From Psammoneis japonica (taxonomy: Eukaryota): a stretch of 64,000 nucleotides of DNA. This document shows, piece by piece, positions 1,098 through 61,630 of the stretch. The notes beneath the pieces were generated by a model, which worked only from the letters and a program-made list of their open reading frames with translations, was not told the origin of the DNA and searched no databases. Every line of letters starts with the position of its first letter. The first letter of the stretch is position 1. The translations under genes were made by a program, and so were the position numbers. The DNA is taken from contig QPGO01000120.1 in NCBI GenBank assembly GCA_008632985.1, positions 1-64,000 on the forward strand, given 5' to 3'.

Positions 1098-1373
1098 TGA
1101 CAGGATTTGAACAGGATTTAGGTGCGCGCGAAGTATCGCGCGCTGTTTAGTTTACCGTGCACAGTTTTGTGTGCTTTAGTTCCGCGCGTTCACGCGCGAT
1201 GTAGTTTGCTTTCGAGCCACAAGGCTCACAAGAACAACAACAGTAGCCCGATTGTGCCGACTTACACGTCTTTCGGCTCCTGCAACGGTCTCTGAGCGGA
1301 GACTCATCTGCCATTTAGACAGCAGTAAGGAGTCATTGTTTGAATTCTTGCCATTTGCCTTCATTTTCTGTCA
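1098..1373 (+). repeat. 5' LTR of copia element
   Basis: Direct repeat of 7929-8204 with 13 mismatches and no indels; TG...CA termini. Confidence 0.97.
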
Positions 1374-2314
1374 GATTAACAGTCTTGCTCATTGTCAACC
1401 CATTGAGCAACCGCCATCGTCGTCGTTGATTTACCAACGACGCTATTTCAATTCTACGTGGACCTCCGTGTGTGTTCTACATACATCGGCAAGTCTACGC
1501 GCATTCAATACCAGGGCATCGGCAGGAAGTTAACGTCACCGTCAAGTCTCCTTACCGCTGGATATCTGGATTGATTGTACTGCCTTTGATCGCTGAAGAC
1601 TTGTGTTCAACGGTCATATCCAAGTCTATCCTTGATCAACATCCCTTGACACACCTGTTCCTCGGTTGACGGTCAAGAACCCTGCATGTTCAAGGATCTT
1701 AGTCGCTGAAGACACATGCATGTGTGTCACATCTTCACGGCCAAGAACCTTTATCCACTCTTCGGACTGCGGTTTTGCTGCCACTCTACAAGCACACCGA
1801 GTCCATTGCACCTGATCTACCCCGGACTGCTGGTGCTCTGCAGTTCCACTGGGTCCACGAGGACGACTGTGAGAGCAGGCAGCCGTGATTGCAGCCTGCG
1901 TTGGGGCGAGGGTGCTTTCCCGCGTTTGTTCGTTCGTCCACAGCGCCTGACGCCTGCGTCAACTGGCCAGCCTGATCGGGAAATCCAACCGACATAAAAC
2001 AAGAACGGTTCGGGGGTCTTGTCCACCTCTAGTCAGCTCACCTGCAGGGGTTTACAACCCGCTGCTCCGCTCGCAAGCAACCCAAAGCGCCACCAGCTGC
2101 GGGTTCGGACGTGCCGGCACAACTCTGCGGACCGGACAGGAAGTTTAGCACTTGACAACGAACGGGATGACAAACCCCGGCGACTTCTGATCTCAAGACA
2201 GTTCAAGATTTCAAGTCAAGTCCATTTCAAGTCAAGTCTGTTCTCACCCAAGTTTCGAGTCTACCTTCGCTTCCCAACCAGAATTGATTGTCCTGACACC
2301 ACTTTTTGTCTGCC

Positions 2315-5300
2315 ATGGTTCTCACTCGTCAGCAACAAACCGATGGTTTCGAGCACGTGGTTGGAACCGTGCTTGCCCAAGGTGCTGGGAGTCCTCTTCG
2401 TTTGGCTTTGGCCCAAGACGGCACGGACTCGCGTCAGGAACTGTTCACGTTCATGCCGTCCCAAATCGACTCGCTTGAGTGCGACAACGGCGCTAATGCA
2501 ATCCCTTTGCCCCGTGGTCATAAGAACATGTTAGCAGCACTGGTCAGTCTGTGCATTGTCAAAGCACACAAAGGTCTTGACGTTGCCAACGACTCCTCTT
2601 TGTTCACGCATGACGAGTTCCTTGCCACCGCCTCAGCCCCGACTGCATGTCTTCTGTGTCCATCGGCAGCTCACCCCTTGCACCTCCACATGTCACCAAC
2701 CCGACCAAGGCACGCGACCCGGTGCGGGACTTCAAGCGAGGCATCAAGCGTGATCCCACCGCTTTACGGCTCTCAAATCCGACAAGCAGTGGCACACTTG
2801 GCACACCTCACTTGTGGCACAAGCCCGTGCCCAAGACGTCGAGTGCATTCTAGACTCGTCGTACAAACCGACCAGCCCCGAAGACAAACTGCTCTTTGCT
2901 GAACAGCAAAAGTGCATGTTCGCCGTCTTCGAACGCATCCTTCTCACCGACAAGGGCAAGGCTCTCATTCGCGAAAATGTGGGGTCTTCTGACGCACAGA
3001 CCGTCTGCCGCTCCTTGTCTGAGTGCGCGCTTGCCTCCACCCGCGCATCTGTCGAGTCCTCCACCCTGCTCACATGCCTCACCACCGCGCGTCTTGGTGA
3101 TGGCACTTGGAAAGGTCCGACCCACGGGTTCATCCTTCATTGGCAAGATCAGTTGCGCAAGTGCGAGGCACTCATCCCGGCCAGTGACCACTTCTCTGAA
3201 GGACAGAAGCGCGTCATGCTCGAGAATGCCGTGCACCCTGTCGAGGAACTCCGTGCTGTCAAGAACCAAGCTGATCAGCATCGTACGCAGAGCGGCAAGA
3301 GCCTCACATGCGATCAATGCTGTGGCTTGCTCCTCTCCGCGGCAGCTCAGTGCGACAGCACGTTTCAACCCAAGACGACACCTCGAGCTCCCCGACGCGC
3401 CACATGCGCACACGACGTCTGCTCCGAGGAACCGTCCGACGATGTGTTCTACGACATTGACAGTGACGTTGATGTCCTTCAAGCCAATGCTGCCTGCACC
3501 CGCGGTCCCAGCCTCACCGGTGTCCAATGGAGACGTCTCCCTCCCGACCACCAACGGCTTTGGGATTCGTTGCCCGATTCCTCCAGGGCGATCATCCTTG
3601 AGCATTCTCGTCCACCTCCCCGCAACCCGCGAGCCAGCAACTGCCATGAGTCTGTTACGGCCAACCTTCATGACCAACGCCTTGGGAGTGACGGTGATGT
3701 CAACTTGTCCAACACGACTCCCGCTGACTCTGGTGACTCCGCTCCACATGTGGACGCCACTTCGGATAATCCCATCCTGGCGCACCTCACCAAGCGCAAG
3801 CCACTGCCACCCGGTGATCTGCAACGTCTGTTGTCTCCCAACCAAGCTCCCAATGCCAGTCGACCGGGGCCATCCGCCGCTTCCTCTACCCCGCCAGCTT
3901 CTGCAGATGACACAGAACTTAACGGCCGCACTTGCCACCGCGTTAACAACCACAATGTCATTTGCTCTGCCTCTGCTCATCGCTCCACACGCACTGGCGC
4001 TCTAGTCGATCGTGGGGCCAACGGCGGCATTGCTGGCGACGACGTTCGCGTCATTGCACGCACCTCTCGCCAAGTCGACGTTCAGGGCATTGACGATCAT
4101 CAATTGGTGGACATCCCCATTGTCACCGCTGGTGCCGTATTGAGACCCAGCGTGGTCCCGTCATCGCCATCCTCCATCAGTGCGCATGCACGGGAAAGGG
4201 CAAGACCATCCATTCCTGCGGCCAGCTCGAATGGTACAAACAGGATGTCAACGATCGCTCTGTCAAGGTGCCCAACGGCTTGCAACGCATTGCCACTCCT
4301 GATGGCTATGTCATCCCCATTGACATCAAGGCTGGCCTGCCTTGTGTTGCCATGCGACCTTACACTGACGCCGAATGGGACACCCTGCCCCATGTCATCC
4401 TCACCGGTGATGACACATGGGACCCTTCCGTCCTCGATCACTCTGTCACTGACGACGACCAGTGGTGCGACGCGATCTCTGACCTGCAGGACGATCCCAC
4501 TGCCAACCCATTTGACGAATGCGGCAACTGCCGTCATCGTGTCGTTGTCAACGAGACCATCATGTCCGCTTCCTTGTCTGCCGATCACGCGTCCGCCCTC
4601 GATGATCACCTCATTCCGAATGACGACGTGTTCTACGAGTGTCATCTGCATGCGCTTGGCCCCCAGGGCGATGACGTTCCACCTCCGGAGCGCACTGTAC
4701 AGCCCAAGGACCCCCCCTTCGAGTCTCTTCGGCCTCACTTTGGCTTCCCACCTGCCGATGCGGTCCGTCGTACTTTTGACTGCACCACGCAGTGCGCCCG
4801 CATGCCCGCTGGTGCACACCTTCGCAAGGCCCACAAATCACCCAACCCCGCCCTCAATGTGCACCGCCGCAACGAGCCTGTCGCCACTGACACCGTTCAT
4901 GCCGACACCCCGGCCGTCGACTCTGGTTGCACCAGCGCCCAACTGTTTGTTGGCACCGAGTCTGCCGTCACTGACGTCTACGGCACTAAGATGGACAAAG
5001 AGTTTGTCAACACACTCAAGGATCAGATCCGTGAACGTGGTGCCCCATCCAAACTCATTGGCGATCGTGCTCAAGTTGAGATCAGCAACAAAGTGCTCGG
5101 GATCCTGCGCGCCCTCTTCCTCTCTAGATGGCAAAGTGAGCCTCACCAGCAACACCAAAACTTTGCCGAGCATCGACACCAGACCGTGAAGCGCATGGCG
5201 AACACTGTCATGGATCGTTTTGGTTCACCCGCCCATGCATGGCTGCTGGCGCTCATGTGCGTGTGCTTCACACTCAACCATGCAGCGTCCCCACGTCTCC

Positions 5301-7981
5301 ACTGGCGCACGCCCCTCGAGACTCTCACTGGCTCCACCCCGGACATCAGCCCATTGCTTCGCTTTCACTGGTGGGAACCCGTGCACTTCCACCTCGATGA
5401 CTCCGATTGGCCGTCCGAATCCCGTGAGTTGCGTGGACGCTTCGTTGGCATTGCTGAGCATGTCGGCCACCAGATGACCTTCAAGATTCTCTCTGACGAG
5501 ACTCAGAAGATCCTCTGCCGGTCCAACGTCCGCTCCGCTACCCCCGATCCTGCCGTTCGAAACCTGCGTCTTGATCCTCCTGATGGGGAGCCACCTGAAC
5601 CCATCATCAAATCTCGCCATGACGACAACCCCGTCGACTCTCCTGATGGGGAGATCAGGACACCCAAGATGCCAGTTTTCGATCCGCAAGACATCATTGG
5701 ACGCACCTTCCTCATGCAGCCACAAGAGGACGGACAACGCCACAGAGCTCGCATCGTCAAGGCCGTCGAAGACCACGAATGGAAAGTGAACGGCAATCCC
5801 GAGCTCACTAAGTTCGTCTGCTCTGTCAACAATGACGAATACGAGGAAGTCCTTGCCTGCAATGACATCATGAATCACATTGAGCAAGAAGACGAAGACA
5901 CCACTGTTTGGAAATTTCGACGCATCGTGTCACACGAAGGACCTCTGAAGCCTCACGACCCAACCTGGAAAGGCTCCAGCTACAACATCATGCTTGAATG
6001 GGAAAGTGGGGAGATCACGTCCGAGCCTCTTGCCATCATCGCCAAGGACGACCCCGTCACCTGTGCCATCTATGCACGAGAGAACGGACTCCTCGACACG
6101 GATGGCTGGAAGCGGTTCCGCACCATCGCGAGGCGCCAAAAGAAGCCATTTCGCATGGCCAACCAAGCCAAGCTTCGCTCCTTCCGCACTGCACCTCGCT
6201 ACAAGCATGGACACGAAGTTCCCCGGAACTACAAACACGCCATGTCACTAGACGAACGCAACAGCAACCGCAAGTGGGGAGACGCAACTAATCTCGAGAT
6301 GGACCAACTCGACGAATACGAAGTCTTCCATGACTGCGGGCCCTTCAAGTCTTCCACTCCTCCTGCGGGACACAAGAAGATCCGAGTGCACCCAGTGTGC
6401 GACGTGAAACACGACGGTCGCCACAAGGCACGACTCGTAGCCGACGGGCACCTCACGGACGTACCTGTCGACAGTGTCCACTCCAGAGCAGTCTCCCTCC
6501 GTGGCCTTCGGCTGATGATTTTCCTGGCCGAACTCAACGAGTTGGAGACATGGGCCACCGACATTGGCAATGCCTGCCTTGAAGCCACCACCAAGGAGAA
6601 GCTTTACATTGCAGCTGGACCCGAGTTCAGCAAACTCGAAGGACACATCCTTGTCATCCACAAGGCACTGCATGGACTTCGCAGCTCCGGTCTCCGCTGG
6701 CACGAGCGCTTCGCCGACTGCCTGCGAGCTGAAGGCTTCTTCCCCTGCCGTGCCGAACCCGACATTTGGATGCGCAGGAACGGCGACCACTGTGAACACA
6801 TTGCCGTTTATGTGGATGACCTCGCCATTGCCATGAAGGACCCTCAATCTTTCGTCGACACTCTCACGGAAAAGCACAAGTTCAAGCTCAAGGGTGCGGG
6901 ACCCATTGAGTTCCATCTGGGTTGCGACTTTTCCCGGGAACCCGACGGAACCTTGTGCCTGTCTCCGCGCAAGTACATCGAGCGCATGGTCGACAGCTGT
7001 TCCCGACTGTTTGGGGAGAAACCTGCCACCAACGCCCTGTCACCTCTGGAGAAGGGTGACCACCCCGAACTGGACACTTCCGAACTGCTGGGACCCGATG
7101 GCATTCACAAGTTCCAGTCTCTTGTTGGTTCACTCCAATGGGCAGTGTCCCTTGGTCGAATTGACATTACCACGGCCGTCATGTCACTCTCCAGCTTCCG
7201 AGCTGCACCCCATCAAGGCCACTTGGATCGTGCCAAACGCGTCTGTGGGTGCCTCTCCAAGATGCGACACGGTGCTCTCCGCGTTCGCACGGAAGAGCCC
7301 GACCACTCGGATCTCCCTGCTCCGGCCTGTGAATGGATGCATTCCGTGTGTGGTGAAGCAGAAGAGATTGTCCCGAAGGACGCTCCACCGCCCCTTGGCA
7401 AGTTCGTCACTGCCACCCACTGCGTCGATGCAAACTTGTGCCATTGCATGCTCACCGGACGCTCTGTCATGGGAATGCTCCACTTCCTCAACAAATTCCC
7501 GGCTGATTGGTTCTCTAGGAAACAAGCCACCGTGGAGACTGCGACCTGCGGGTCTGAATTTGTTGCCGCAAGGACTTGTGTTGAGCAGATTATCGACCTG
7601 CGCATCACCCTGCGCTGCCTTGGCGTCCCGATCCGTAACGTCAGTTACATGTTCGGTGACAACAAGTCGGTTGTAGACAGTGCCACCATCCCGCACTCCA
7701 AGTTACACAAGCGACACACCGCACTGTCGTTCCACCGTGTGCGTGAGGCAATTGCCTCTGGTTGCCTTGAGTTCCACTTCATCGAAGGCTCCCGCAACCC
7801 TGCTGACATTCTCAGCAAGCATTGGGGTCACTCCCAAATCTGGGACCTTCTCCGCCCCCTCATGTTCTGGAACTTCATTCCATCCGAAGTCGAATCTGTT
7901 TCTGTGGCTCCTCAAGCAAACTGGGGAGTGACAGGATTTGAACAGGATTTAGGTGCGCGCGAAGTGTCGCGCGCTGTTTAG
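2315..7981 (+). pseudogene. copia gag-pol polyprotein, frameshifted and Tyr-depleted
   Basis: Protease LVDRGANGG, integrase (TDTV...SEPHQQHQNFAE), RT (KARLVADG, YVDD), RNase H (NPADILSK). Frameshifts near 2640, 2810 and 4140. Confidence 0.93.
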
Positions 7982-8204
7982 TTTGCCGTGCACAGTTTTG
8001 TGTGCTTTAGTTCCGCGCGTTCACGCGCGATGCAGTTTGCTTTCGAGCCACAAGGCTCACAAGAATAACAACAGTAGCCCGATTGTACCGACTTGCACGT
8101 CTTTCGGCTCCTGTGGCGGTCTCTGAGCGGAGACTCATCTGCTGTTTGGACAGCAGCAAGGAGTCATTGTTTGAATTCTTGCCATTTGCCTTCATTTTCT
8201 GTCA
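7929..8204 (+). repeat. 3' LTR of copia element
   Basis: Direct repeat of 1098-1373, preceded by the PPT and followed by TSD GGCAC. Confidence 0.97.
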
Positions 8205-10930
8205 GGCACCATGGTGTGGGCTGCTTTTCAGAGCCCGGAAAAAGTCAAAAAGAGGCATTCAAAGGTTGGGAGTGCAGCTGGCATTGCAAGCTGTTGAAAG
8301 CTTGGTCCAAAAGTTCCCGCAAAAAAGCTGAAAAATGTTGTGAGGTGCAGAAAATTCCAGCATTGCTGAAGAAAAAGAAGATGCAAGCCCAAGCTGCTTT
8401 GAGGCTGTTGGCAGCTGTTGACAGGCATTGCAGACAACAAAGTGGAAAGACAGCTCCAAAGCCTCCATGCAGCTGGGCTCATGTTGCCCTTTTGGCCCAG
8501 TGAAAGGCATCCAAGTGTGAGGAGGTCTCTGATGTTTCTTGGTCAAGAGCATGCAGCAGTGAGTTGGCTGGTGCTGGTGTGTCCCAAAAGGGTGCCCGCC
8601 TGGGCTTGGTGCTCCCCCAGCACAGGCCCATCCATGTGAGCAGTGTTTCTGGCAGAGGAAGAGAGCAGCAGCAGGGTCAGCAGTGCTGGAATGAGGAGGT
8701 GTTGAGTGGTCAAGCTTCTGACAAGCTTTGGCACACAAAAGAGAACCTTTAAAAGGTCTTTGCAGTGGCCTTGGGCAACAAGCCAGTCACAGAGCTGTGT
8801 GATGATCATGGAGAAATTGCTGAGATTTGCACTTTGAGCCCAGCATTGGCAAAGGCTGCCACACACAACACCCTGAAGGTTGGCTGAAGTTGGCAGAGCA
8901 CAGAGGTTGATGTCTTTCTGGCAGGTGCTTGTCTCCATTTGGCTGGCTGCTCCAACTGGCTTGAAAAGATCCAAGATGATTGCTTTGTCCTTCAAAGGGA
9001 AGTCACCACCCACACCTCAATGAGCCAACATCACCAAGCTCCCATTTGCTCTGTCTTGTTCACAAACTCCATCACATGGAGCTCAGCTGAACCAGTCTCA
9101 GCTGGGGGTGGGTGGAAAGCAGGTGGGATGCAGGGCTGTGCTCTTTGTTCTTGAGGTGCAGTTCAAAGTTCTGATGAAGCATTTCAAGCATGTGGAGCCA
9201 AATGTTGTGCACCTCATCTGTTGGGAGGCAAAGGCTGAGGTGACTTGACTCAAAACTTGTGGCTGAGACTTGGCAAAGATCCAGGCTTGGGGGATGGCCA
9301 GAGCCTTGTGCACAGTGCGCAGGATGTGGGAAGTCATGTTGCAGGTGCTGTTGCATTTTGGGGCACTCACACTGCCCCACAGCACATTTGCCTGTGTTGC
9401 CTCAAGGTGGCTTGTCTGGGTCAGGTGTGACAAAGCCATGAACTTGCTGGCAGTGCTCAGATGTCTCTTGGGTTGCTGCTGCAATGGGACAAATGGCTGC
9501 TTGGGGATGTGCGCCAGTCTCAACTGCAGAGCTGCTTCAGCAGCCCTTTTTTGCCCTGTGCCATGCCCCGTCCACCTTGGTTTGGTCTGCCTTTTTTTGG
9601 TTCACAGGTCTGGGCTTCAGCTTTTTGCAAGCTTGGCATGGGGTTTTGGGAGGTTGTGCTTTTGCTTCCCTTTTCTCTTTTTTTGCTTGGTTTTTGTGGT
9701 GAGTCTTTTGCAGATGTTGCCAATTTTGGGGCTCCCCAACAACACCGTTGGAGCTTTTTTTTTGTCTTGTTCAAAAGTTGTTGCTTGGCACATTTGGGCC
9801 CATCCTGTTCCAAGGCTGCACACACACACTGTCACACACAGTGGGACATGGTGCAACAAGTTTCTTGCATTCAAGGGTGGCAGTGGCAGCATGTGCAGCC
9901 TTGAGCTGTTTGCACGTTCTCTGCTTTGCAACGGCCTTGGCATTTGTCAGCTTCTGCTGCTCTTTCCAGCGCAGCAAGCTCTGGAGACCAAATGTGACAG
10001 AGCCTCAAAAAATTCCTCATTTTTTGGATCATGGCTGTTTCCATCTGCTTTTTGTTGCCTTGCATGCAGGTCACTGCACTGACTTCAAGCTGTGATGTCA
10101 ACAGAGTCCCTGGGAAAGTTTTGGAATCTTTGTGACAAGGAATCTTTCTGGCACTCCTTTGCAGTCAAGCTGGTGTGCAATTTCTTGGATGGCTTTGTTG
10201 TCAGCAATGCCAAGGCAGTCATTGTGCAGCATGGCAGCCAGCTCCCAGTCTGGCCAGGCACTTGGCAAGGAACACCCCTCCAAGGCATTTTGTGGCAATG
10301 TCACGTTGGCACAGCATCATTTTCTTTTTATTTTTAATGCAAAAAGTGCAGTGCTTGCAACAACAAATGCTTCAAGTCTCAGCTTCTTTGTGGCCTCCAA
10401 CTTTCACATGGCTGTTCAATGCACATGGTTCCCTGCTTCAAATTGGAAGCTGCCAATTGCCTTGTTGATGTTGGCAGCAAACTTTTTTGCTTTCTCACGT
10501 GGTCCCAAAGATTGTTGCTGAGTTGAACTTGACATTGATTCTGACAAGCTTGGTGATGAGGGGATGGTCTGCTGGGCCCGGGAATGCCAACCTGTGTGCT
10601 CAGATGTTGCCCCAACTTTGCAACCATGTGCAAGCAGCAAGTGATCCTGCAACACCCTGGAAAGCTGGAAGCTGTGCCTTGATTTGCTTGCGGCATGGTG
10701 ACAATTTGTCCAACTCACATTTTTCATCTGGTGTGCTGATGCTGATGGTTCAGCACCACATGCAAGGCCAAATTTGAGTGGGCGCACAGGCTGTTGCCAT
10801 CATCAAAGTTCACTGCACTGTTTTGGGGGTTGTCCAATGTGCAACCAGCATGCAGGAGCATGACAGCAGCCCTGTTAAAAGAGTTGTCTGGTGTGCAAAG
10901 CTTGATGATGTGAGCTTTTGCTTTCCTGGC
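8205..10930 (-). mobile_element. Ancient retroelement relic, probably Penelope-like
   Basis: ORF 8543-9013 (ILDL...TCQKDINL...GVVCGSLCQCW...WLVAQGH) recalls the C-terminal part of Penelope-like RTs with Y->C changes. Near-total loss of TA and CG. 10160-10215 is an inverted homolog of 25395-25450. Confidence 0.5.
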
Positions 10931-11219
10931 ATTGTCAAGTAGTGCGACAACACGGATGAAGCTTCCGCCTTGCCGTTGGTGTGGACCAGGGAACATCCCA
11001 AATATGTGTTGGCGGAAGAGTTCCCAGTGGAAAATATTGACTGAGCAAGGACCATCTCACAATAGACGACTATGACATACTGAAATAGATCTCATGACCA
11101 TGTCTGGTGCATGAAATTGGACCAAAGAAGATTGGCGTAACAAGCAAACTACCAGCATTCCACTGCCTAATTGACCGGAGAACTTAAACAAGAAACAGAG
11201 AAGGCAGCCCCACGCTGCG

Positions 11220-13175: not shown

Positions 13176-13539
13176 ATCAGTATGACATCAAATGTCAGCA
13201 GTGTCCTTCTGATTTCTGATTGTGGGAAAAGAACAGAGAAAGAGTGATGAGAGACCACTGCTGAATCTACTTATTACTTGTAGCAACAACAGCTTTTTTG
13301 CCTCTTCTCTCCTCGAGATTTCCAGATTCGAGATCCTCGAGATCTTTCAAAAGAACCCGGATCTTCGTATCCACGGTTGGATCGAATCGTTCGACTCAAC
13401 ATCATGCGAACGAACCGCAATTTTTTGTTGGTCTGTCAGTTCCGTGATCATCCTGTCGCCATGCATGAGAGCTCATCTCGCCAAAGAGTGTGATCTTCTT
13501 CTTCTTCTTGCTCAACATTTTGGGATGGATCAGAAACCG

Positions 13540-15570: not shown

Positions 15571-15779
15571 CCCTTACACACACATCCATCCGTTGCCCGA
15601 CCCTCCTTTCATGCTCATACTGTGGAATGTATTTCTAATGTATGGAGAAATCAAATTAGGTCATCCATAAAAATTAGTATTCGCAACTGGAGTATTCGAT
15701 TAGCACTCAACGGTCTTCTGGGCATCGCGGATTATTTCGCAAAGATCCCTTCATCTTCATCATTTTTCACACACTCAAC

Positions 15780-22190: not shown

Positions 22191-22191
22191 G

Positions 22192-26270: not shown

Positions 26271-26278
26271 TGGTTCAA

Positions 26279-41689: not shown

Positions 41690-41719
41690 TTTTGATCAAA
41701 CAGTGGCGTGTCATTATAA

Positions 41720-47098: not shown

Positions 47099-47121
47099 TG
47101 CGATTCATTGGAGGAGGCGCG

Positions 47122-49746: not shown

Positions 49747-50892
49747 TCAGCGGTAACTCGTCCTAGAATTACCGCTGTCGAGCCTCCCCGGGGTGACCAG
49801 CCCTGGCTCTCGTAAGCCGCCATGCAGAATTTGAAATGCAGCCAGGGAGTCGCTGCAGACAACTCCAAGACAGCCACCTGTAATGTTGGAGACCCAGGTG
49901 GACAGGTCTGCCGACCAAGTAGTCAATATCGCCATCTCCGTGCAGCATGGACATCCGTTAGATTGTCCCGATGCCGCTAGTCCGTAAGAATGTGTGACGT
50001 CGACGGGTATTCCCAAGTCAGCGACCCGATCTACATAGTCAATCTTTTGGCTTGCCTCTTCTTCATTTTCCAGCATCCGTTCCTGAAAGGCATCAGGTGC
50101 TGTTTTCCCACACACATCACAAGCAGTCAGATCCGGAGGATCATCAATGTCAACTTGTTGCACCAGATGGTACCCTCTACAATGCTTGTCGTGGCAGCGG
50201 AAGCGCCGGGAGTCGTCTCCAGTCAATGACATGCATCTATCGCATCTGCAGTCAAAGTCCTTCACTCTCTTTAGCTCGGCTCGACGGAGGAACATGGGCT
50301 TTTCCAGGTACTTTTGGTCAAGATAGTTGATAGTTAGCATCTCTCCAGACTGGATGGGCGCAATCACTCGCACTATCTTAGAGCAACCGTCTTGGGAGCT
50401 AAACCAGACACAGTTGGGACGACATGAGTGTGCCATTCGACATGCGACTTCAAAGAGACCGTGCCCCTTGTAGCTTCCGGGCCCACCGCCGTCAGCATTG
50501 ACTGGTTGAACGGCCACAGTATTGAATTTGATCACCATGAAAAGACGAGTGAAGCGCTCGGCACATTCCTGAGACTCGACGTATTCAGACACAAACTCAT
50601 GTACTCGACGAGCATCGGCACATTCCATGTCAACATAAAACGACAAAACCTTTTCTTGGATGTCCTCGGGTTGCTCCAAAAAGTACAAATAGTCCGGCCA
50701 GCTTCGCTCATGCAGCTCTCTTCTCGATCGTCCCCACAGTGGTGAGACTGTACGGTCGTGAGGAGGGAAGACAATCAAAGCCTTTTCTCGAAAGGCTTCC
50801 AGCCCTAAAGTGCCTGGAATCAAATCGGTCTGGGCAACAACAGCATTCCCAAAGCCTTCGACCTCCTGGATTTTGACAAGTTCCATTTTCAT
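49747..50892 (-). CDS. SMYD-like SET-domain protein, C-terminus probably rearranged
   Basis: GFGNAVVA, RMAHSCRPNC, GEMLTINY and post-SET FDCRCDRC motifs. Confidence 0.8.
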   Translation of the reverse strand: MKMELVKIQEVEGFGNAVVAQTDLIPGTLGLEAFREKALIVFPPHDRTVSPLWGRSRRELHERSWPDYLYFLEQPEDIQEKVLSFYVDMECADARRVHEFVSEYVESQECAERFTRLFMVIKFNTVAVQPVNADGGGPGSYKGHGLFEVACRMAHSCRPNCVWFSSQDGCSKIVRVIAPIQSGEMLTINYLDQKYLEKPMFLRRAELKRVKDFDCRCDRCMSLTGDDSRRFRCHDKHCRGYHLVQQVDIDDPPDLTACDVCGKTAPDAFQERMLENEEEASQKIDYVDRVADLGIPVDVTHSYGLAASGQSNGCPCCTEMAILTTWSADLSTWVSNITGGCLGVVCSDSLAAFQILHGGLREPGLVTPGRLDSGNSRTSYR

Positions 50893-51625
50893 TCTCTTGT
50901 CTTGTTCATCGAGATTGCAGTGTGCTCAATGCGTTGTTTCTGCTGGGATGTTTTCGGGTTTTAATGTGAACGATGTCTCCGCGTGATGATGATGTGTTGG
51001 TTGCACTCAACGGACGGACGTGATAGACATACCGTGCCGTCGTGGAGACGATGCTCTTCGGTTTACAATTGTGTGCCAGAGTAAAGAAAAGAGACTATGA
51101 AAAGCACTTCCCCATTCTCCATTATATCTGAGAATGGGCTCTTCTTTGGAAGCGCTCTAGGTTGATGACTGATGCGACGGTCTTTGATTCGATTTTCCCA
51201 GGGTGAAATATGTCGTCTCGAGGAAGAGCTTGCCTTGGACCCAAGCCAGGCTTCAACCGTCTCTCAGCTGATTTCAGACGGCCGTCATGCTTGCTGCATT
51301 TGGTAAATCAAAGCCTCGTTGAAAAGCTACAAAATGTTCTCCTTGGCATGGAAGGGATGCATTTACGATAGAAGCACAGGGTTTCATTCAAAACTCACAT
51401 TTCAGAACAAAAAGAAAATTGCTATTGAGACATTTCTGTCTGTTTTGGCACCGGTACGATACTGTAGAAGAACGAAATGATCCGTGCTCCGAGTCGGGTC
51501 GATCTATCTAGCCGTTGTTGACCTCGAGCAAAACCAGTTGAAACTTTCACGAGCAACACCCCATGCAACATTACACAAGCTGTTGCCCCACCAGAAAGAG
51601 TCAGGATGGAGATGGCAATGTTTCA

Positions 51626-52579: not shown

Positions 52580-54150
52580 TGCTTGAAGCCAGAGCTCCAG
52601 GCAGGGAAGAAATGCACTGGCTAAAGTGGCGGAGAGGGGCATGGACTTGACCAGAGTGGGACCCCATTTGCTCCTCACTTTGTGGAAAGCCACATCTGTT
52701 TGGTTGCAAGAAGAATGACAGGGAATGATGCGCAAGCGACCCCATTGATTTTTGCCCGTGGTGGCAGAGTGACCCTGTGAGTTGGTCTCTGTGCTCTGTT
52801 TCAAGAAACACAGTTGGAACAAACTCTCTCTTGTCCACTTCACTGGGTGCATCTAGCATTGCCTCTTTAGATGTGCAGTGTCATGCCACAATGGCTCACA
52901 TGCAAAAACAACAATGGAGTGAGCCTCTTTCCGTTCCGGTTGAGGCAGCAGACAGCAGACAATTCACAGGCATCATCTGCCGGGTGCAAGCCTCAATTCA
53001 AAGAGTCAATGGCAGCTGTGCTTTCAGCTGCTGGCTTCTGCTTTGGCAGTGGGTTTCCTTTTTGATTCATTCTTTTTTTGCTTTGCTGCTGGTGGCTGGT
53101 GCATGGGGGTGCCAAAAGCGCTTCCTGAGCCGGACCCACTGCTGTGTTTTGAATCATTAAGAGGCAACCACTGGTTTGTGTGCAAAGGAGAAAGCAAAAT
53201 GCTTGTGAGATGTGTGCAACTTTAAATCCATGCCTTTGGTCTGACATGCAATGACATTGCTTGATTCACCAATGGGAAAGTTGTCATCTGTCACTGTCAA
53301 TGGAGAGCAGAGTTTGCAACCCAACTGCTGGCAAGTTGAAAGAGAGTCACATCATTGGCTCCCAACATCAACCAGACAGCGCTGCCAGCTCCAATCAACT
53401 CAAGTCATGACTCACATTGACACCCACTTCTTTGTGCAGCTCACAAGTGGCTCTCATTTTGTTGGCAAAGAGCAGCTGGTCCTTGGCAGCTCCTCTGCAC
53501 TCTGGGCTGCTTGAACAAACTTGGGTTTGTCAGTGTGTCTGCCTGGAAGCTGAAGGTGGGGACCCTTTTTTCTTGCATGTGCAATTCAAGAGCAACAGCC
53601 CATGAATGCTGTGGACTGCAATGTGTGCAAAACAAAACAAAACAAAAAGTTGGAGGTTGCCATGGTGACAACAAACAATGTGGCAACACTTTGACCAGAG
53701 AGTCACTCACCAATGAAAGTGAACCCACTGCAGCAGCATCCCACATGGCCCACCAGGCTTGGCTTTTCTGAAAGGTCTTGAGGAGTGGCACTCTCACCAC
53801 TTGGCTTTTCTGAAACATTCTGAGGACCAGCATTTTTGAGACTTGACATTTCTGAATCATCTCAAGGAACAGCATTGTCAATGCCTGGCTTTTCCAAAAT
53901 TTTCAGGGGAATGTCACTTTTCTCACTTGAGCTTTCCAAAACATCCTGAGGAAAGGTGTTGTCAATCTGTGCTTGATGCTTGACAAGAGTTTTGCATGCA
54001 ACCTCTTCTCATCTGTGACACTCAGTGCACATGGTTCATGACAAAAGTTCTTGACGTTGACTGTGCTGCCCATTTTTGCAAGCATTTGACAATTGTGCAA
54101 GAGCTGGTGGGTCACTTCACTCCTTTGCTTCTTATTTTCTTGGAATCCAT
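52580..54150. mobile_element. Degenerate repeat relic containing a decayed 42-bp tandem repeat (53761-53970)
   Basis: TpA/CpG-depleted; ggcttttctgaaa....tgagga unit recurs about 5 times at a 42-bp period. Confidence 0.5.
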
Positions 54151-54235: not shown

Positions 54236-54571
54236 AGTGGTTATCCGTACAGATCCTGGTGTTGATTCTACGAGACACAATATAAGACACCATAGATTTC
54301 GCGCGAAAAGAAGCGTGCCGGCGATTGATTCGTGGCCCCAGACTGCGACGAACTCATTTCTTATGTATTCAGAAGCCTTCAAATGCCACTATAAATCGAT
54401 TTTCCCTTATGTTATCCATAAGCCCCTATGCCCTGTGGTGTTTAACGCTTTGCTGTCAACGGCAAAACAATTAGGGAGCATTGGAAAAATTGTGGTGGCG
54501 TTTTGGATTGAGATACCACACTGACACCATATTTTATCCAAACATGGTATCTGGCTGTACGGATAACCACT
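54236..54571. mobile_element. MITE with AGTGGTTATCCGTACAG TIRs, TpA-intact
   Basis: Perfect TIRs; internal homology to 21137-21590. Confidence 0.88.
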
Positions 54572-54943
54572 AGAAGCATCTCATTGGTTGTATTCGCGCC
54601 ATCGTACTAAGACTGTGAGTGGCTGAGCCTGTCCGGCAGCTAGATTTACTCGCTTCATCAGAGCCAAGTCGTTAACTCAGGTTTAGTTTGACGAAAAGCA
54701 TTGAACAACTGTGAAGAGATGATCGCACCAAGATGGCAGGGTTGTGATGACGAATGCCGGTCGATCGAAGGGTGCATGATGATCATCGTCACCTGGCATC
54801 AGTGAATGAACAAGCAGTGAGGAGACATGGCCAGTTCCATGCTTCTAATGGCCATGTGTTGTTGTCAACACAGACCGAGACATCCTTTTTTTAATTTGTG
54901 ATTTCTCACATGACTCTGTTTTCCCACTGGCACAGGCACCACC

Positions 54944-57900
54944 ATGGCGGCTGCTCCTCCGGATCCTGTCGAGACAGCACTCGAATGGATCGGATTTGTT
55001 GATCCAGCTCAACGAGTCTCGCTTGTGGCGGACTTTGCGTCTTTTGACGATTTAGAAGACCTCAAGGAAGAAGACATCGACTCCCTTGCATCATCACACG
55101 CTGGGAGGACGGTTGCTGAAGGGCGCATTCATTTTGGTTTGGCCCGCAGTCGTCGACTCAAAGCTCTCATCCATTGGGCACAGGACTTTGGTCATGTGAG
55201 CGAGAACCCCACTCTGGATGGGCTTGACCAGGCCACTTTCCGCACTGCTCTCCAGACGGCACTCAGTCGTGCTGAGATCCGTTCCCAGACCAAGACCACT
55301 GCTGACTCTTTTGGTGAAGAGGCGTCACCCGGGATGTTGGAGAGTGAAAAGGATTGGGTCAAGTGGAGCACTGGCTTGACGAATGTGCTTGGTGTTGTGC
55401 CAGGAGTCTCTGGCATGCTGTTGGTGCATTGCACGCGTCAAAACGATGCACCTGAACCTCAAGGCCACAACACTTTTGTCCAGAAGTGCATTGCATGTGC
55501 ACCCCTCCAAGGCCCAGCCTTCAAGGCTGACACTTGTGCGGTTCATTTGCTCATCAAGTCCCTTGCCACGGGCACACCCAGTGAGCAATGGTTGAAAGAC
55601 CACAAGAATGAGCAGAACGGACGAGTTGACTTTGGGGCGTTGTGTGACCATTGCCAGGGGGAAGGGAATGCCTCCCCACCGCATCTCTGAAGCCGAGCGC
55701 ATGGAGAACACCCTCCATTGCAAGAGTGAATGCGCCATGCCGTTTGAGTTGTTTGTCAACAAGCTTCAAGAAATGTTCAACATTTTTGAAGAGAACAACG
55801 AACCGAAAATGGAGGCCCAGAAATTGTGGATTCTTTTTGAGAAGACGCAGCACCAACCACTGCAAGCAGCAGTTGAGACCTTGAAGGCACAGAATGAGTT
55901 TGGAGGAGGCATCACATTCACCACGGCGGCCAATCATCTTGCTGCAAAAGTTGCCACCCTTCCAGAGATGATTGCGCATTGTCGCGCGATTGCCGCAGTC
56001 ACCTCTGGAGGAGGAAAAGAGGGTGGTGCCATTTACAATGAGGATGGATCCATTGACACTGGATGCCACAAAAATTGGTGCCAGTTGAGCAAGGAGGACA
56101 AACAGAAGGTTGTCGACGAGCGCGTGCGTCTGGGTGTTGCCAAACTACCCAAACCAACCAAACGCCGTGCTGCATCCGTTAAGTCGCTCAAGAAGAAGAA
56201 TGGAAGCTGTCATCGCAGCTCAAAGAAGCCAACCGCAAAATCTCCACCCTGAACACTGATGCCAGCGCCGATTCTGGCGATGATGAATCAAGGGCTGGTG
56301 GCAAAGACGGAGATGATGCCGGAGACGCATTTGGTGGTTGCAGTGAAAAGCGCAGAGGAAAGAACAAATGACTGCCAAGCTGGACCCTGCTTTGTTGCAT
56401 CATGAACTTCTTGTTGTGGTTGCTGCAATGGGGTGGGGGACAGCCGCATCCATCAAAGGAGCAGCACACACGTGGCTGTGACAAACGCGTCTGTGAGGTC
56501 GTCACCTCAACATGGCGTGTCTCTTGGCAATGCGGTCTGACACCACACGAATCACTCACATCCGTGACATGAGCAAGGTGCAGCATGGATGCCTTGAAAT
56601 GGATTCGCATGCTGACACCACTGTTTTTGGTCAAAACTTTACCCTCTTGGTTGCAATTCCACCAAGAGTGTCCCAATCATCTCGGCAGCCACGGCGTGGA
56701 CGTCACCGACATTGGGAGCAACATTTGTTCTGGTCTTCCACGAGGGCTTGTGGATGCCAGATTCCATGGAGCACTTGCTGGTTAACCCAAACCAGCTGCG
56801 GCACTTTGGTGTTAAGGTTCAGGACAACCCCTGCTCTGATTCACCACTGCACATCCTTGCAGAGGACAGATCTTTCATGATGCCACTTGAAGCCATGGGG
56901 ACCAACATTGTTGCGGCAACTTGCACTCCCACAGAGCAGGAATTGCACAAATGCCCCAAGATCCAGATGACCTCCCAACAACCTTGGGATCCACAGACCG
57001 TTGCATTCAAACCTGTTGGAACTTGACAATCTGCGGAGGAGGAAATGGAGCTAGTTTGGTCAATTGCGATGATCCATGCCAATCTGACACACACGAGTTC
57101 AAAGCTGATCCTGCCTGCAGCAACCCTCAATCCAGGGACTGTTGCAATGAGCGATTCATTTGTGCAGTCGATCAAGTCCAATCAAGGCTCATGGCTGCCG
57201 TCAATGTGGAATCGGAGTCAACAGTCCAGATCTCTGCCACAGAAACAATCGGCAAAGGACCTGAAGACTCAGCACTCCCAAAGACATTCATGTCTGAGGA
57301 GAGACACAGTGATGTGTCGACTGCTGACTCAAGTGAACGATGGTGCATGGGACTCAAGCAAGCAGCAAGCATGCTCAAGAAGACTGCGCAAAAGCTCATC
57401 AGGTCAGCGTTGATGCCAATGGGTTGACGCTGTCGGGCCGATCGGATGTTCACGAAGCCTGGGTTACGTGGTGAATGGGCAACCGACACGGTTGATGGCA
57501 AGGTGGTCTTGCTGGAGGGCAATTGATGTGCTCAGATCTTCACAAACAAACAACACTTTGCTGCGATTTATCCCATGGACAAGAAGAGCAAGGCTGGCGA
57601 GGCTCTCAAGATGTTTTGCCAGGAATTTGGCGTGCCAGAGAAACTCCTGATGGATGGATCTAAGGAGCAAATGAAACCTGGTGCGGAGTTCATGAAGACC
57701 GTGCGCAAGGAGGGCACAGATTGTCATGTCATCAAACCCGATCGACACAACCAGAATCCTGCAGAAGGAGTTGTGCGCAAGGCCAGACGCAAGTGGTTCC
57801 GCATCATGGTCAAGAAGCAAGTGCCGCGGCGACTGTGGGACTGCGGATTTACGTGGACATGTGAGACCATGTCTCACACATTCCTTAGAGCACATCATTT

Positions 57901-60430
57901 GGATGCTGGAGTGCCACCAGAGAACATTGTTGGAGAGACCGTGGACATCTCGGAGTGCCTTGACTTTGGATTTTATGATTGGGTCTGGCACAGGGAGAAT
58001 GCTGGTCCAGGGGACGAGAAGCTCGGCAGGTGGCTTGGTGCATCTCACAGAACAGGGAGTCTCATGTCGTGCTGCGTTCTGACACAGACAGGCGTGTATT
58101 TTGAGAACTTCTGTTCAACGAGTCACCAATTTGGAAGCCGCTGCTCAAGAGAAAAAGGCAAAGTTTGACAGTTTTGATGAGGAGATCAAGCGACGGTTTT
58201 GAAGGAGCAAGACTTCCCCGATGACGGGGATCGCAAGATCAGTCCCGAAGACTGGAAAGACCACCTTGAATACGACGATGAATTCCTCGATGAGCATGAT
58301 CGTGTCACATCCTCAGAGGAGGCAGCAAATGACGATGACGATGGGAAAGACGAGGAAGCCTCACCGGAGGCGGCGGACTGGGGACACCTTGACATGGAAG
58401 TTGCGCTTCCAAGAGATGACAATGGTCCTGAGTTTGCTCATGTCATGAAGAGGTTGAGAGATGCCAACAGTGTTCCGATGGGAACAGCCAATGACAATCC
58501 CATCCTTGACACAAGGATGCATGAGGTAGAGTGCCCTGATGGGCACCATGCTGCGCTCTCTGCTGACTCCATCGCCATGAATGTGTTTGCTCAGATCGAC
58601 GAGGACGGAAACCGGCATGTCTCATTTGACGAGATTGTTGATTGCCACACCAACGGGGACGTTCCTGAGTCCGAGTTCTTTGAGACCAAGCAAGGCGTTC
58701 AGAAGAGGCGCAAGACTGCCAAAGGATGGGAACTCCTGTTCCAATGGAAGGACGGAAGTGCGACTTGGATCGACTTGAAGATTACAAAGGAGAGCTTCCC
58801 AGTCCAAGTTGCCAAGTTTGCCATTCAGCGCAAGATCTCGAATGAGGCGGCGTTTGCCAGGTGGGTCCCTCATGTCATGAAAACCCGCAAGCGTTCCATT
58901 GCGAAGGTCAAGTCAAAGCATTGGCTTCGGACACACAAATTTGGCACACGGATCCCAAAGAGTGTCAAGGAGGCGATCCAGATCGATCGCGCAAATGGCA
59001 ACACCCTGTGGTGGGATGCCATTTGCATGGAGATGAAGAATGTGCGGGTTGCTTTTGACAAGTGTGAAGGGGAGCTTAAGGACATGGCACCTGGTTTCCA
59101 GGAAGTGAAGTGTCACATGATTTTTGACATCAAATTGGGAGAAAACTTCCGCCGTAAAGCTCGCATGGTGGCTGGAGGCCACACTGCTGAACCCCCCGCA
59201 CACATCACTTGCTCCTCTGTTGTCTCTTGGGAGATGGCAAGGATTGCACTGACGCTGGCTGCACTCAATGACTTGCAAGTCTTTGCATGTGACATCCAGA
59301 ACGCCTGCTTTGCTGCCCCTTGCAGGGAGAAGATTTGGACCAGAGCAGGTTCCGAGTTTGGCGAGGATGAAGGTTGCATCATGATTGTGGTCAGAGCCCT
59401 GTGCGGATTGAAGAGCTCCGGAGCAGCGTTCAGGGCATTCCCAGCGGAGACGCTTTATGATCTAGGGTGCAAACCGAGCAAGGCTGATCCGGATGCATGG
59501 ATGCGACCTGCGGTGAAACCCGACGGATTCGAGTGCTGCGAATGCGTTCTAGTTTATGTGGACGACGTGCTGTCGATCAGTCATGAACCCATGAAGACGA
59601 TGGATGGCATCAGGTCCAAGTTCAAGCTCAAGGGTGACAAGGCAGCCGAACCGGATTCTCATCTCGGTGCTGCGCTTTCCAAGATGATTTTAGCCGATGG
59701 GACCACCTGTTGGGCAATGTCTGTGGAGAAGTGCTGCAAGGCTGCTGTCCACAATGTAGAGGACAGGCTTGGCAAGGAGGGGAAACATCTGCCCAGCAAG
59801 GCAACAACCCCACTGAGCAGTGGATGCAAACCCGAGTCTGACACTGCTGGCAAACTGGACGCTGAAGGACTTCACTGCTGTCAAGAGCTTGTTGGCACAC
59901 TGGTTTGGGCTGTGGAACTCGGCAGAGTGGACATCCATTTGGAGGTTTCGTCAATGTCTGCTCACCTCGCTCTTCCTTGCGTTGGTCATCTGGAACAGGT
60001 GTTGCACATCTTTGCATGCCTCAAACAGGTTCCAAAGCGCCAAGTGGCATTTGATCCGGCTCATCCAAGATCGATGAATCGCGATTCGTGAAGTGTGACT
60101 GGCGCGACTTCTGCCGAGATGCAAGAGAAGCCATTCCGACAAATGCACCACCAGCTCAAGGTAATGTGGCATCGACACATTGTTTTGTGGATGCTGACCA
60201 TGCCGGAAATGTTGCCGATCGTCGCAGCCATGCAGGTGTCTTGATGTTTGTCAATCGGGCACCCATCGTGTGGCACTCAAAGCGTCAGAATGCCATGGAG
60301 GCTGGCACATTTGGGGCTGAGATCGTTGCACTCAAGAATGCCATCGAGCTCACAGAGGGTCTACGATGCAAGCTTCGAATGTTTGGGGTGCCGATCGAAG
60401 GGCCAACAAATGTCTTCTGTGACAATGAGG
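54944..60430 (+). mobile_element. Second Ty1/copia element (different family), 3'-truncated, gag-pol pseudogene
   Basis: Gag; PR MDSHADT; IN HNQNPAE; RT KARMVAGGH, YVDD; RH FVDADHAG, FCDN. Multiple frameshifts and stops; no 3' LTR seen. Confidence 0.92.
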
Positions 60431-60434
60431 CAGC

Positions 60435-61630
60435 GAGGCTTTGTTTTGCCAAACGCAGCAAGCATGCAACAGCCAACTCAAAATGCACCGAATCTTGCAC
60501 GCCATCATGAACGGCCCGCGACCACATCATGACCAACAACTCATTGACTCATGACTGCCGTCTGAAATCAGCTGAGAGATGGTTGAAGCCTGGCTTGGGT
60601 CCAAGGCAAGCTCTTCCTTGAGATGACATGTTTCACCCTGGGAAAATTGAAGCTAAGACAGTCGCATCAGTCATCAACCTCGTGCTTCCAAAGAACAGCC
60701 CATTCTCAGATACAATGGAGAATGTGGAAGTGCTTTCACAGTCTCTTGTCTCTGCTCTGGCACACAATTGCAAACTGATGAGCATCGTCTCCACTCGGCA
60801 TGGCATGTCTGTCACGTCCCGTCTGTTGAGTGCAACCAACACATCATCATTGCGCAGAGACACAGTTTGCTCAAAACCCAAAAATGTCCTGGAACAAACA
60901 ACGCATTGAGCACATTGCAATCTTGATGAACAAGAAAAGAGAGAAACAATGGCGGACTGTTTGCACTTTTTGGAGCAACCCAAGGACATCCAAAAACAGG
61001 TTTTGTTGTTTCATGTTGACATGGAAAATGCCGATGCTCGTCGAGTGCATGAGTTTGTGTCTGAACACTGCGTTGAGTCTCAGGAATGTGCCGAGCGCTT
61101 CACTCATCTTTTCATGGTGATCAAATTCAATGCTGTGGCTGTTCAACCAGTCAATGCTGATGGCAGTGGGCCCACAAGCTGCAAGGGGCATGGTCTCTTT
61201 GAACTGTGTCTGGTTTGGTTCCCCAAGACAGTTGCTCTGAGACAGTGCGAGTGACTGCGGCCCATCCCAGTCTGGAGAAATGGCTGCCTCAAGCAGAAGC
61301 ACTTGGAAAAGCCCATGTTCCTTCACCAAGCCAAGCTGAAAAGCACTGAGAACTTTGACTGCAGATGCAGCAGATGCATGTCATTGAATGGAGATGACTC
61401 TCAGTGCTTCCGCTGGGCTTCCATGACAAGCACTGCAGAGGGTGCCGTCTGGCGCAATGAGTTGACATTGATGATCGTCCGGATCTGACTGCTTGTGGTG
61501 TGTGCAGGAAAACAGCACCTGATGCTTTTCAGGAATGGATGCTGGAAAATGAAACAAGAGGCAAGCCAAAAAATTGACTGTGCAGATCGGGTCACTGACT
61601 TGGGCACACCCGTTAATGTTGCACATTGTT
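60435..61630 (+). pseudogene. Inverted, mutated duplicate of the SET gene region about 49990-51320
   Basis: Reverse-complement homology including upstream sequence; ADARRVHEFVSE..VESQECAERFT shared; deletions and Y->C/H changes. Confidence 0.92.

Follow-up and report, generated by a model that had tools for sequence, protein, structure and literature searches.

In mutation-accumulation lines of the alga Bigelowiella natans, 231 of 302 nuclear mutations fell within regions of giant-virus and virophage insertion (bioRxiv 10.64898/2026.01.13.699255), and 230 of these 231 were A to G or T to C changes, all of them at TpA dinucleotides (Mettrop et al., bioRxiv 10.64898/2026.01.13.699255). New changes in resident DNA came at a rate of about 1e-7 to 1e-6 per site and generation, TpA-poor coding sequences of the alga were enriched for reverse transcriptase and DDE domains, and adenine deamination was offered as a hypothesis, with a few cases of such activity on DNA being cited (bioRxiv 10.64898/2026.01.13.699255). 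Here we analyze a 64,000-nt stretch of the genome of the diatom Psammoneis japonica (assembly GCA_008632985.1, contig QPGO01000120.1, positions 1 to 64,000; hereafter the window), in which a context-specific process of the same kind has very probably converted TpA to TpG or CpA in chromosomal DNA after insertion.

The resemblance between the two algae extends to several features. In both, A:T to G:C change is seen only at TpA and yields TpG or CpA; for example, 15 of the 16 substitutions between the long terminal repeats (LTRs) of a gypsy-type element in the window are A to G or T to C, although older pairs bear some background change as well. Similarly, foreign or mobile DNA is hit in both while the remainder is ordinary (judged here within 64 kb), and the action is patchy and non-constitutive, leaving clusters that are poor in TpA and rich in CpA and TpG. 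There are also differences. B. natans is a rhizarian, in which new mutations were seen directly, whereas those of the diatom are deduced from comparison of sequences. The targets in B. natans were mainly one single-copy insert of a giant virus and one insert of a virophage, in both of which many TA are left, whereas in the diatom they are LTR retrotransposons, a family with terminal inverted repeats (TIR-like) and fragments of host genes, often mutated to completion. Finally, a loss of CpG and a preference for a 3′ pyrimidine are both found here and are not described for B. natans.

Fungal repeat-induced point mutation (RIP), as outlined in published accounts of the process (PMC2621366, PMC7296669), cripples repeats by heavy, context-specific transitions. 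The diatom process is like RIP in leaving a dinucleotide footprint on repeated DNA and in being a plausible genome defence. However, RIP changes C to T, mainly CpA to TpA, and thereby creates TA, whereas TA is destroyed here, down to an observed/expected ratio (O/E) of 0.087; moreover, RIP hits both copies of a duplication, whereas here one copy of each pair is intact. In fungi, RIP also takes place before meiosis and requires methyltransferases of the RID/DIM-2 type.

Neither diatoms nor stramenopiles appear in the text of the B. natans preprint (bioRxiv 10.64898/2026.01.13.699255). A term search of a 2025 preprint on diatom transposons (10.1101/2025.10.24.684338) showed that neither hypermutation nor dinucleotides, RIP, deaminase or methylation is mentioned in it, and we found no report of TpA hypermutation in diatoms in the full-text literature, within which most subscription journals were not covered. 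The original prediction for this window, made from its letters alone, knew of no description of such a process in diatoms; the B. natans preprint has since described the kind in another alga. Judged by its footprint, therefore, a process of the kind first described in 2026 in a rhizarian is met here in a second case, in a diatom. The features added by this case are LTR and host-gene-fragment targets, TA-free kilobases, the 5′-TAY preference, spared 5′ ends and occurrence on environmental contigs.

Results

TA is depleted in discrete blocks

Over the whole window the TA O/E is 0.32, compared with 1.45 for TG, 1.40 for CA and 0.74 for CG, at a GC content of 49.4%. This deficit is patchy, with 1-kb bins ranging from 0.00 to 0.70. 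By fitting a two-state Poisson hidden Markov model (HMM) to TA counts per 100 nt across the 64 kb, we assigned 35,700 nt in 11 blocks to a depleted state (TA O/E 0.087, CpG 0.565, TG 1.64, CA 1.57, GC 51.2%) and 28,300 nt to a normal state (TA O/E 0.568, CpG 0.994, TG 1.20, CA 1.20, GC 47.2%). One of the depleted calls, at 39201-39600, falls within an intact host gene and, with 3 TA over its 400 nt, probably represents noise. The longest runs entirely free of TA measure 1,579 nt (8750-10329), 1,249 nt and 1,133 nt; at the TA density of the normal state, the chance of a 1,579-nt run is about e^-62.

The depleted blocks contain the body of a copia-type retrotransposon, the 3′ two thirds of the gypsy-type element, a second copia element, degenerate copies of two host genes, copies of the short inverted-repeat family and DNA that is unidentifiable. 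Indeed, none of 66 open reading frames (ORFs) of at least 110 aa from depleted blocks matches Pfam, which leaves much of this DNA unassigned. In the normal blocks, long host ORFs have a TA O/E of 0.50 and a Tyr content of 1.8-6.6%, and normal-state DNA outside ORFs and transposable elements has a TA O/E of 0.63.

The depletion also alters the reading frames. TAA/TAG-type stop triplets, counted on both strands, fall to 6.6 per kb from a normal 33.8 per kb, and with TAA and TAG lost, TGA alone is left as a stop in 2297-8000 and in other depleted blocks. Because these stops are lost, the depleted blocks display long, false, overlapping ORFs in several frames and on both strands, which are a trap for gene prediction.

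Copies of the same sequence differ mainly at TpA

The LTRs of the gypsy-type element differ by 16 substitutions over 587 aligned positions, of which 15 read TA in the 5′ LTR and either TG (8) or CA (7) in the 3′ LTR. An LTR retrotransposon integrates with two identical LTRs, and these changes must therefore date from its time in the chromosome. They affect 15/65 TpA sites, as compared with 1/64 CpG sites and 0/456 other A and C sites, and include 0 transversions; the change rate at TpA is thus at least ~35 times that of the other sites. Timing after insertion is likewise indicated by the copia-type element, whose LTRs (self-match of 1098-1374 with 7929-8205, 95.3% identity) carry the termini TGACAG...CTGTCA, are bounded by an intact 5-bp target-site duplication, GGCAC, at 1093-1097 and 8205-8209, and show 13 differences, 8 of them at TA.

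Older pairs in the window repeat the pattern. Between the host gene at 35256-36648 and its copy at 29212-30611, TA falls from 49 to 6, and transitions have altered 38/88 TpA sites and 33/118 CpG sites, as compared with 2-11% in other contexts. For the MYND/SET-type host gene and its degenerate copy, changes affect 27/58 TpA and 34/111 CpG sites, and the TA counts, intact versus degenerate, are 21 versus 1 and 10 versus 2. In the inverted-repeat family, a copy at 54256-54570 has 13, 12 and 6 TA where the copies at 21-22 kb have 1, 0 and 0; there are 25 TA-versus-TG/CA differences in this direction and 0 in reverse.

To describe the context we pooled five internal pairs, took the TA-bearing copy of each as the reference and sorted transitions by neighbouring base. 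A to G changes affect 86/231 TpA sites but only 21/512 ApA, 36/479 CpA and 10/490 GpA sites, and C to T changes affect 68/333 CpG, 31/483 CpA, 13/303 CpC and 22/398 CpT sites. The excess of TpA over ApA is significant for the five pairs (Fisher p = 2e-30) and for the gypsy LTRs alone (15/65 versus 0/101, p = 3e-7), and transversions are absent from the young pairs. Only 1 of 83 mutated TA had become CG, and therefore the first hit removes the target. The 3′ neighbour matters as well: T-A-C (34/65) and T-A-T (29/53) are changed far more often than T-A-A (8/51) and T-A-G (13/59), which gives 63/118 for T-A-Y versus 21/110 for T-A-R (Fisher p = 7e-8). Among the TA that survive in depleted bins, TAA is enriched and TAT is scarce.

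These spectra bear on two other explanations. The first is error-prone synthesis by a Pol eta-type polymerase recruited to heterochromatin, which the original prediction had put forward as a candidate. Pol eta makes A to G errors at WA motifs, and this known preference speaks for it. However, ApA is not raised here and resembles CpA rather than TpA, not one ApA has changed in the gypsy LTRs, and the young pairs are without transversions, so that this candidate is withdrawn as highly improbable. The second is that repeats undergo GC-biased gene conversion, or that TA is selected against. Either would agree with the rise in GC from 47.2% to 51.2% in depleted blocks, but conversion would raise A to G everywhere, when in fact only 2-7.5% of non-TpA A sites have changed, and selection cannot yield 15 TpA changes and 0 others between young LTRs; we consider that there is scarcely any chance of either being the cause.

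Both strands are mutated, and DNA of several kinds is involved

The products are spread over both strands, with TG:CA ratios of 8:7, 9:10 and 11:20 in three pairs. Taken together, these comparisons show a change from A:T to G:C at TpA that acts on both strands after insertion, with a strict requirement for a 5′ T and a preference for 5′-TAY.

Editing before integration, in which retrotransposon RNA or cDNA would be deaminated during reverse transcription in the manner of APOBEC or ADAR enzymes, has to be weighed against this timing. Retroviral cDNA shows 5′ to 3′ editing gradients, and a gradient of this type might be seen in the fact that both LTR elements are spared at the 5′ end and that the gypsy tract stops at the 3′ end of the element. 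On the other hand, the strands are used equally (8 TG and 7 CA in the gypsy LTR; 9 Cys and 5 His in the copia pol described below), and DNA that is not of retroelement origin is mutated too, including the two host-gene copies, the inverted-repeat family and the unidentifiable blocks. In B. natans, furthermore, DNA viruses acquire the mutations in place, after their integration. Pre-integration editing is therefore very unlikely, and mutation of chromosomal DNA remains the preferred reading.

The ancestral state is TA

A single pair of copies cannot reveal the direction of change, because TA to TG/CA and a RIP-like CA to TA look symmetric. This symmetry, which any single LTR pair displays, is what allows the opposite polarity to be entertained, namely that RIP-like C to T change at CpA made TA in the copies that we call normal. 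We therefore polarized the changes by three tests.

In the first, conserved Tyr residues were followed. Residues from 4382-7978 of the copia pol were aligned with 12 near-full-length relatives; of 25 columns with a conserved Tyr, 7 have kept it, 9 have Cys (TGY) and 5 have His (CAY), while other residue classes are 68-100% kept. Similarly, the gypsy RNase H-integrase region, compared with 18 relatives, has kept 3 of 14 conserved Tyr, with 4 changed to His and 2 to Cys, and the second copia has kept only 2 of 23, with 7 Cys and 3 His.

In the second test, seven outgroup proteins were used for the MYND/SET duplicate. At 50 amino-acid differences they side with the intact, TA-bearing copy 38 times and with the degenerate copy 5 times, with 7 ties; at the 12 differences that involve TA codons the score is 11 to 1.

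In the third, 80 environmental copia loci (412 kb) were found to have a TA O/E of 0.33-1.0 and a longest TA-free run of 378 nt. The copia family is therefore not natively TA-poor, whereas its member in the window has a TA O/E of 0.19 over the pol frame and of 0.25 over its full length.

Conserved Tyr residues, MYND/SET outgroups and environmental copia relatives thus concur that the direction is TA to TG/CA. The opposite polarity is contradicted by all three tests; in addition, the TA-bearing partners lie at the ordinary O/E of the genome, 0.5-0.7, and not above it, and TA-free kilobases cannot be ancestral for the host-gene copies. It is almost certainly wrong.

Mutated tracts appear to follow regions rather than pairs of copies

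Along the gypsy-type element, counts of 7-13 TA per 200 nt give way to 0-3 at around 43400 and recover to 5-10 beyond 47800; its 5′ LTR and first 2.4 kb (41098-43500) are TA-normal, and the mutated tract ends with the 3′ end of the element. In the copia-type element the 5′ LTR and first 0.7 kb (1098-1800) are at normal TA, and the remainder through the 3′ LTR is mutated. That the 5′ ends of these two plus-strand LTR elements are spared could be due to an active 5′ LTR that marks the border of a chromatin domain, to recombination among copies or simply to chance.

In each host-gene duplication, only one copy is mutated and its partner is TA-normal, and because one copy of each duplicate is intact, the process does not look like RIP-like pairing. 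Targeting looks regional rather than pairwise by homology. What is mutated is thus part of the mobile or presumably silenced DNA, over tracts of kilobases, and this matches the patchy, line-dependent behaviour seen in B. natans.

CpG is also lost, in a subset of the same DNA. The CpG O/E is 0.05-0.3 in old blocks at 9-11 kb, 14 kb, 30-34 kb and 53 kb, and within the window neither the 1-kb bins nor the HMM blocks contain a block that is CpG-poor yet TA-normal. In the young gypsy tract and in the copia-type element TA is lost while CpG is still at 0.84-1.0; the copia body and 3′ LTR have about normal CpG, whereas the right flank at 8206-11000 has TA near 0 and CpG of 0.1-0.25. The older element in which the copia-type element is nested (1-1097 and 8206-11000) was by then almost without TA and had little of its CpG left. 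Diatom transposons are CpG-methylated, and decay of 5-methylcytosine (5mC), which turns CpG into TpG or CpA, yields the same TG and CA and can be seen in the older blocks (68/333 CpG sites changed in the pairs, O/E down to 0.05). However, 5mC decay cannot remove TpA, and TA has been lost from young elements in which CpG is intact. The simplest reading is that two processes act on the same silenced DNA, one at TpA and the other ordinary methyl-cytosine decay, and the TpA process is the faster because young elements are without TA but still have CpG. One enzyme acting on both A and C is possible.

These results agree in large part with the original prediction, which had described TA as lost from most repeats to TG or CA, with pairwise differences mostly of this type (confirmed by the HMM blocks and by the LTR and duplicate pairs), had attributed the loss to A:T to G:C change at TpA on both strands after insertion (upheld by the LTR pairs, Tyr columns and MYND/SET outgroups) and had held single-copy genes to be normal, as the host ORFs indeed are. 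The points that it had named beforehand as able to refute it all went its way: TG/CA is not ancestral, the excess of change at A sites is specific to TpA, and the signature is lacking from single-copy intergenic DNA. Its picture of a repeat-restricted "reverse RIP" needs correction: only transposon or duplicated DNA is affected, as it said, but one copy of a duplicate is hit rather than both, and the 5′ ends and the copy at 54256-54570 are spared. Likewise, its account of the spectrum was right about TpA loss and overlooked the CpG to TpG/CpA decay in older blocks.

Contigs and environmental relatives carry the same signature

We compared the window with k-mer contigs from sequencing runs. Every one of the 30 bins into which 41001-61000 was divided has contigs from run X1, the depleted low-copy parts among them, and 692 of 3,040 contigs are at least 99% alike. 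Single-copy parts have a depth of about 45-70 and few or no differences, whereas transposon parts reach a summed depth of 500-3,200 and are therefore multi-copy families; across the 30 bins, depth and TA O/E are negatively correlated (Spearman -0.52, p = 0.003). Relative to the window, the contigs carry 1,352 differences, of which 1,121 are transitions, and among 40 of 1,378 recorded rows of differences 15 are of TA/TG/CA type, 9 of CG/TG/CA type, 6 are other transitions and 10 are transversions. At three places the window has CA where other copies have TG, which may come from independent hits on an ancestral TA or from CG; we gave these no weight. Run X3, from another organism, matched the window with one contig on short pieces only, and run X4 with none.

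The signature also appears in metagenomes. Three copia proteins have kept few conserved Tyr (0/10 in P0316, 0/12 in P0274 and 4/13 in P0221, with Cys or His at 8, 12 and 8 columns, respectively), while three others have kept most of theirs (17/19 in P0184, 14/15 in P0204 and 8/9 in P0212). Among the 80 environmental copia loci, for which the median fraction of conserved Tyr kept is 0.88, L065 (5/19), L039 (11/22) and L053 (12/21) have Cys or His at 14, 6 and 6 columns and are low in TA at the DNA level. Going by these proteins and loci, the signature is not peculiar to this assembly, and the process occurs in other environmental eukaryotes.

An artefact of sequencing, base calling or assembly confined to repeats, such as unpolished miscalls at modified bases, might be suspected from the assembly gap in the window and from the fact that the only runs to cover the window come from a possible source sample and are in the form of contigs. 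Yet X1 contigs span every bin tested, the changes keep to the limits of elements and are not shared by the two LTRs of a single element, the same Tyr to Cys/His signature is found in unrelated public metagenome assemblies, and an Illumina-based mutation-accumulation study of another alga found the same spectrum. An artefact hence deserves very little credence.

Features of the window

The coordinates are collected in Table 1. By Pfam, the host genes of the window encode BTB, SET, 2OG oxygenase, ankyrin, kynurenine-monooxygenase-like flavoprotein, MYND/SET and DUF7733 proteins. For the flavoprotein gene, the closest relatives that bear a name come from the diatoms Helicotheca, Seminavis and Amphora (44-47% identity), and the best match overall is a metagenome protein (80% identity). 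Among the TA-normal host genes are two adjoining SET-domain frames at 15678-19335 and a 2OG-Fe(II) oxygenase (PF13640) at 19585-20745. An ankyrin-repeat ORF at 28015-29043 (Ank_2, E 6e-24) spans the border of the largest depleted block, with a TA O/E of 0.19, 0.9% Tyr and 5.2% His, and could represent a gene or pseudogene of the host that came to lie in the tract.

The gypsy pol, in which Pfam recognizes RVT_1, RNase H and integrase zinc-binding domains, is open throughout 44348-47098 except for one in-frame stop at 45326-45328, between its reverse transcriptase and RNase H parts. For the MYND/SET fragment (49672-50338 and 60344-61000) the summed contig depth is about 430, compared with about 100-150 in its neighbours; this several-fold excess means that a piece of the host gene is itself repeated in the genome, perhaps after capture by a transposon beside the second copia. 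The assembly gap is an 85-nt run of N at 13779-13863, within a block depleted of both TA and CpG.

Table 1. Features and TA-depleted blocks of the 64-kb window
Feature	Position	Strand	Remarks
Old block without identity, left flank of nested copia	1..1100		2 TA in 1,100 nt; TA O/E 0.03, CpG 0.27; one ORF tested, no Pfam match
Copia-type LTR retrotransposon	1098..8204	+	LTRs 1098-1373 and 7929-8204; RVT_2 E 2.8e-24
TA-depleted block: copia body, 3′ LTR and older right flank	1801..11000		63 TA in 9,200 nt, O/E 0.14
Copia pol open frame	4094..7981	+	Tyr changed to Cys/His; RVT_2
TA- and CpG-depleted block, with assembly gap	13301..15600		5 TA in 2,300 nt; TA O/E 0.04, CpG 0.36
Short inverted-repeat (TIR-like) family copies without TA	21135..23000		HMM-depleted 21201-21600 and 22001-23000
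TA-depleted block, origin not assigned	24901..27700		TA O/E 0.10, CpG 0.55; no Pfam matches
Largest TA- and CpG-depleted block	28201..34600		17 TA in 6,400 nt; TA O/E 0.04, CpG 0.29
Degenerate copy of host gene 35256-36648	29212..30611		Within block 28201-34600; pair 78% identical
Intact TA-normal host gene	35256..36648	-	ORF 35568-36494, 308 aa, ATG start
Gypsy-type LTR retrotransposon	41098..47708	+	LTRs 41098-41690 and 47122-47708; pol 44348-47098
Hypermutated tract inside gypsy	43501..47000		TA O/E 0.16, CpG 0.84; milder depletion up to 47708
Intact MYND/SET-type host gene	49747..50925	-	SET domain; relatives with MYND and SET; TA O/E 0.47
TA- and CpG-depleted block	52601..54100		5 TA in 1,500 nt; TA O/E 0.05, CpG 0.13
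Unmutated inverted-repeat family copy	54256..54570		600-nt TA-normal island between depleted blocks; island TA O/E 0.76
TA-depleted block with second copia and degenerate MYND/SET copy	54701..61800		34 TA in 7,100 nt; O/E 0.08, CpG 0.59
Second copia pol frame	58181..60091	+	RVT_2 match
Degenerate MYND/SET copy	60550..61630		Reverse orientation; self-match to 49986-51289 (gene and upstream DNA)

Discussion

On our reading, the process strikes kilobase tracts of transposons, of captured or duplicated gene fragments and of other presumably silenced DNA, and spares expressed single-copy genes and ordinary intergenic DNA. Adenine would be converted to hypoxanthine by a DNA-acting deaminase, of ADAT2/TadA type or another, which might be recruited to silenced DNA via chromatin or small RNAs. 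At saturation, essentially every TA is gone, Tyr codons and TAA/TAG stops are erased and GC is raised, while the CpG loss of older blocks would most simply be ordinary 5-methylcytosine decay in the same silenced regions. Enzymatic adenine deamination is the chemistry that we prefer, although we put its likelihood somewhat short of even.

ADAT2/TadA deaminases and the adenine base editors of the laboratory have the appropriate chemistry, A to I, which is read as G, and act with a U or T on the 5′ side of the target A. The natural tRNA target is U33-A34, and early adenine base editors prefer YAC. Unlike the DNA mutated here, however, the substrates of the natural enzymes are tRNAs. Among the deaminases catalogued by Iyer et al. 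(2011, PMC3239186) are clades from stramenopiles, with an oomycete form of deaminase-SAM-Tudor type in their number; this serves as a lead only and not as evidence.

The closest competitor to adenine deamination supposes that the mutated base is T, such that the thymine of TpA is modified, for example to 5-hydroxymethyluracil (5hmU) by a TET/JBP-type dioxygenase, and then mis-repaired or miscopied to C. TA is self-complementary, so that sequence alone cannot separate the two, and the 5′-TAY preference reads equally well as 5′-RTA; moreover, 5hmU in dinoflagellate DNA is found preferentially at TpA. Against this, 5hmU:A pairs are not known to be strongly mutagenic, and the B. natans study, the sole direct one, proposes adenine deamination. 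As the original prediction had stated, no causal gene is evident in the window: it contains no TET/JBP gene, the 2OG oxygenase at 19585-20745 (PF13640) belongs to a different family, and the SET frames and this oxygenase are neither known deaminases nor of TET/JBP type. We regard modification of T as unlikely, and continue to favour deamination of A.

Several observations weigh against our interpretation as a whole. With TA self-complementary, A to G on one strand is by sequence the same as T to C on the other. Strand-coordinated runs, which a processive single-strand deaminase might leave, are absent overall (54 observed versus 54.0 expected), although the gypsy LTR alone gives a hint of them (6 versus 8.5 expected). 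Some repeated DNA is spared, namely the first 2.4 kb of the gypsy-type element, the first 0.7 kb of the copia-type element and the inverted-repeat copy at 54256-54570. In the Tyr test, the small host-gene control kept 5 of 7 columns and had one Tyr to Cys change of its own, and 5 of the 50 outgroup votes on the MYND/SET pair, including 1 of 12 at TA codons, went to the degenerate copy. A target-site duplication was looked for around the gypsy-type element and not found. Mutated copies are under-sampled by the 80 environmental loci, since these are the best matches of queries that are mostly intact. The X1 contigs go back to a sample that is also the likely source of the assembly, so that they are not independent, and they are contigs rather than raw reads.

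The findings have practical consequences for diatom genomics. Saturated elements escape domain searches, as shown by the 66 ORFs without a Pfam match. Dating by LTR divergence is inflated, since the 16 differences among 587 positions of the gypsy LTRs include 0 outside TpA and CpG. Furthermore, the false long ORFs that follow from TAA/TAG loss, and a local GC shift of about 4 points, affect the analysis of these genomes.

A mutation process of one rhizarian alga is now seen in a second, distant and ecologically dominant lineage, and, given the environmental contigs with the same signature, it is probably widespread rather than a curiosity. More speculatively, and with somewhat less confidence than we have in the chemistry, diatoms, and perhaps protists of the SAR group (stramenopiles, alveolates and rhizarians) generally, may possess a chromatin- or small-RNA-guided adenine deaminase defence, which would attack 5′-TAY adenines on both strands of silenced mobile DNA and inactivate transposons faster than methyl-cytosine decay does. 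If true, such a guided adenine-editing defence would mirror fungal RIP in its function and would be the natural equivalent of the adenine base editors used in the laboratory. As some diatoms are genetically tractable, the enzyme should be findable, and a natural, TpA-specific A to G editor of DNA would be of interest to research on both genome defence and base editing.

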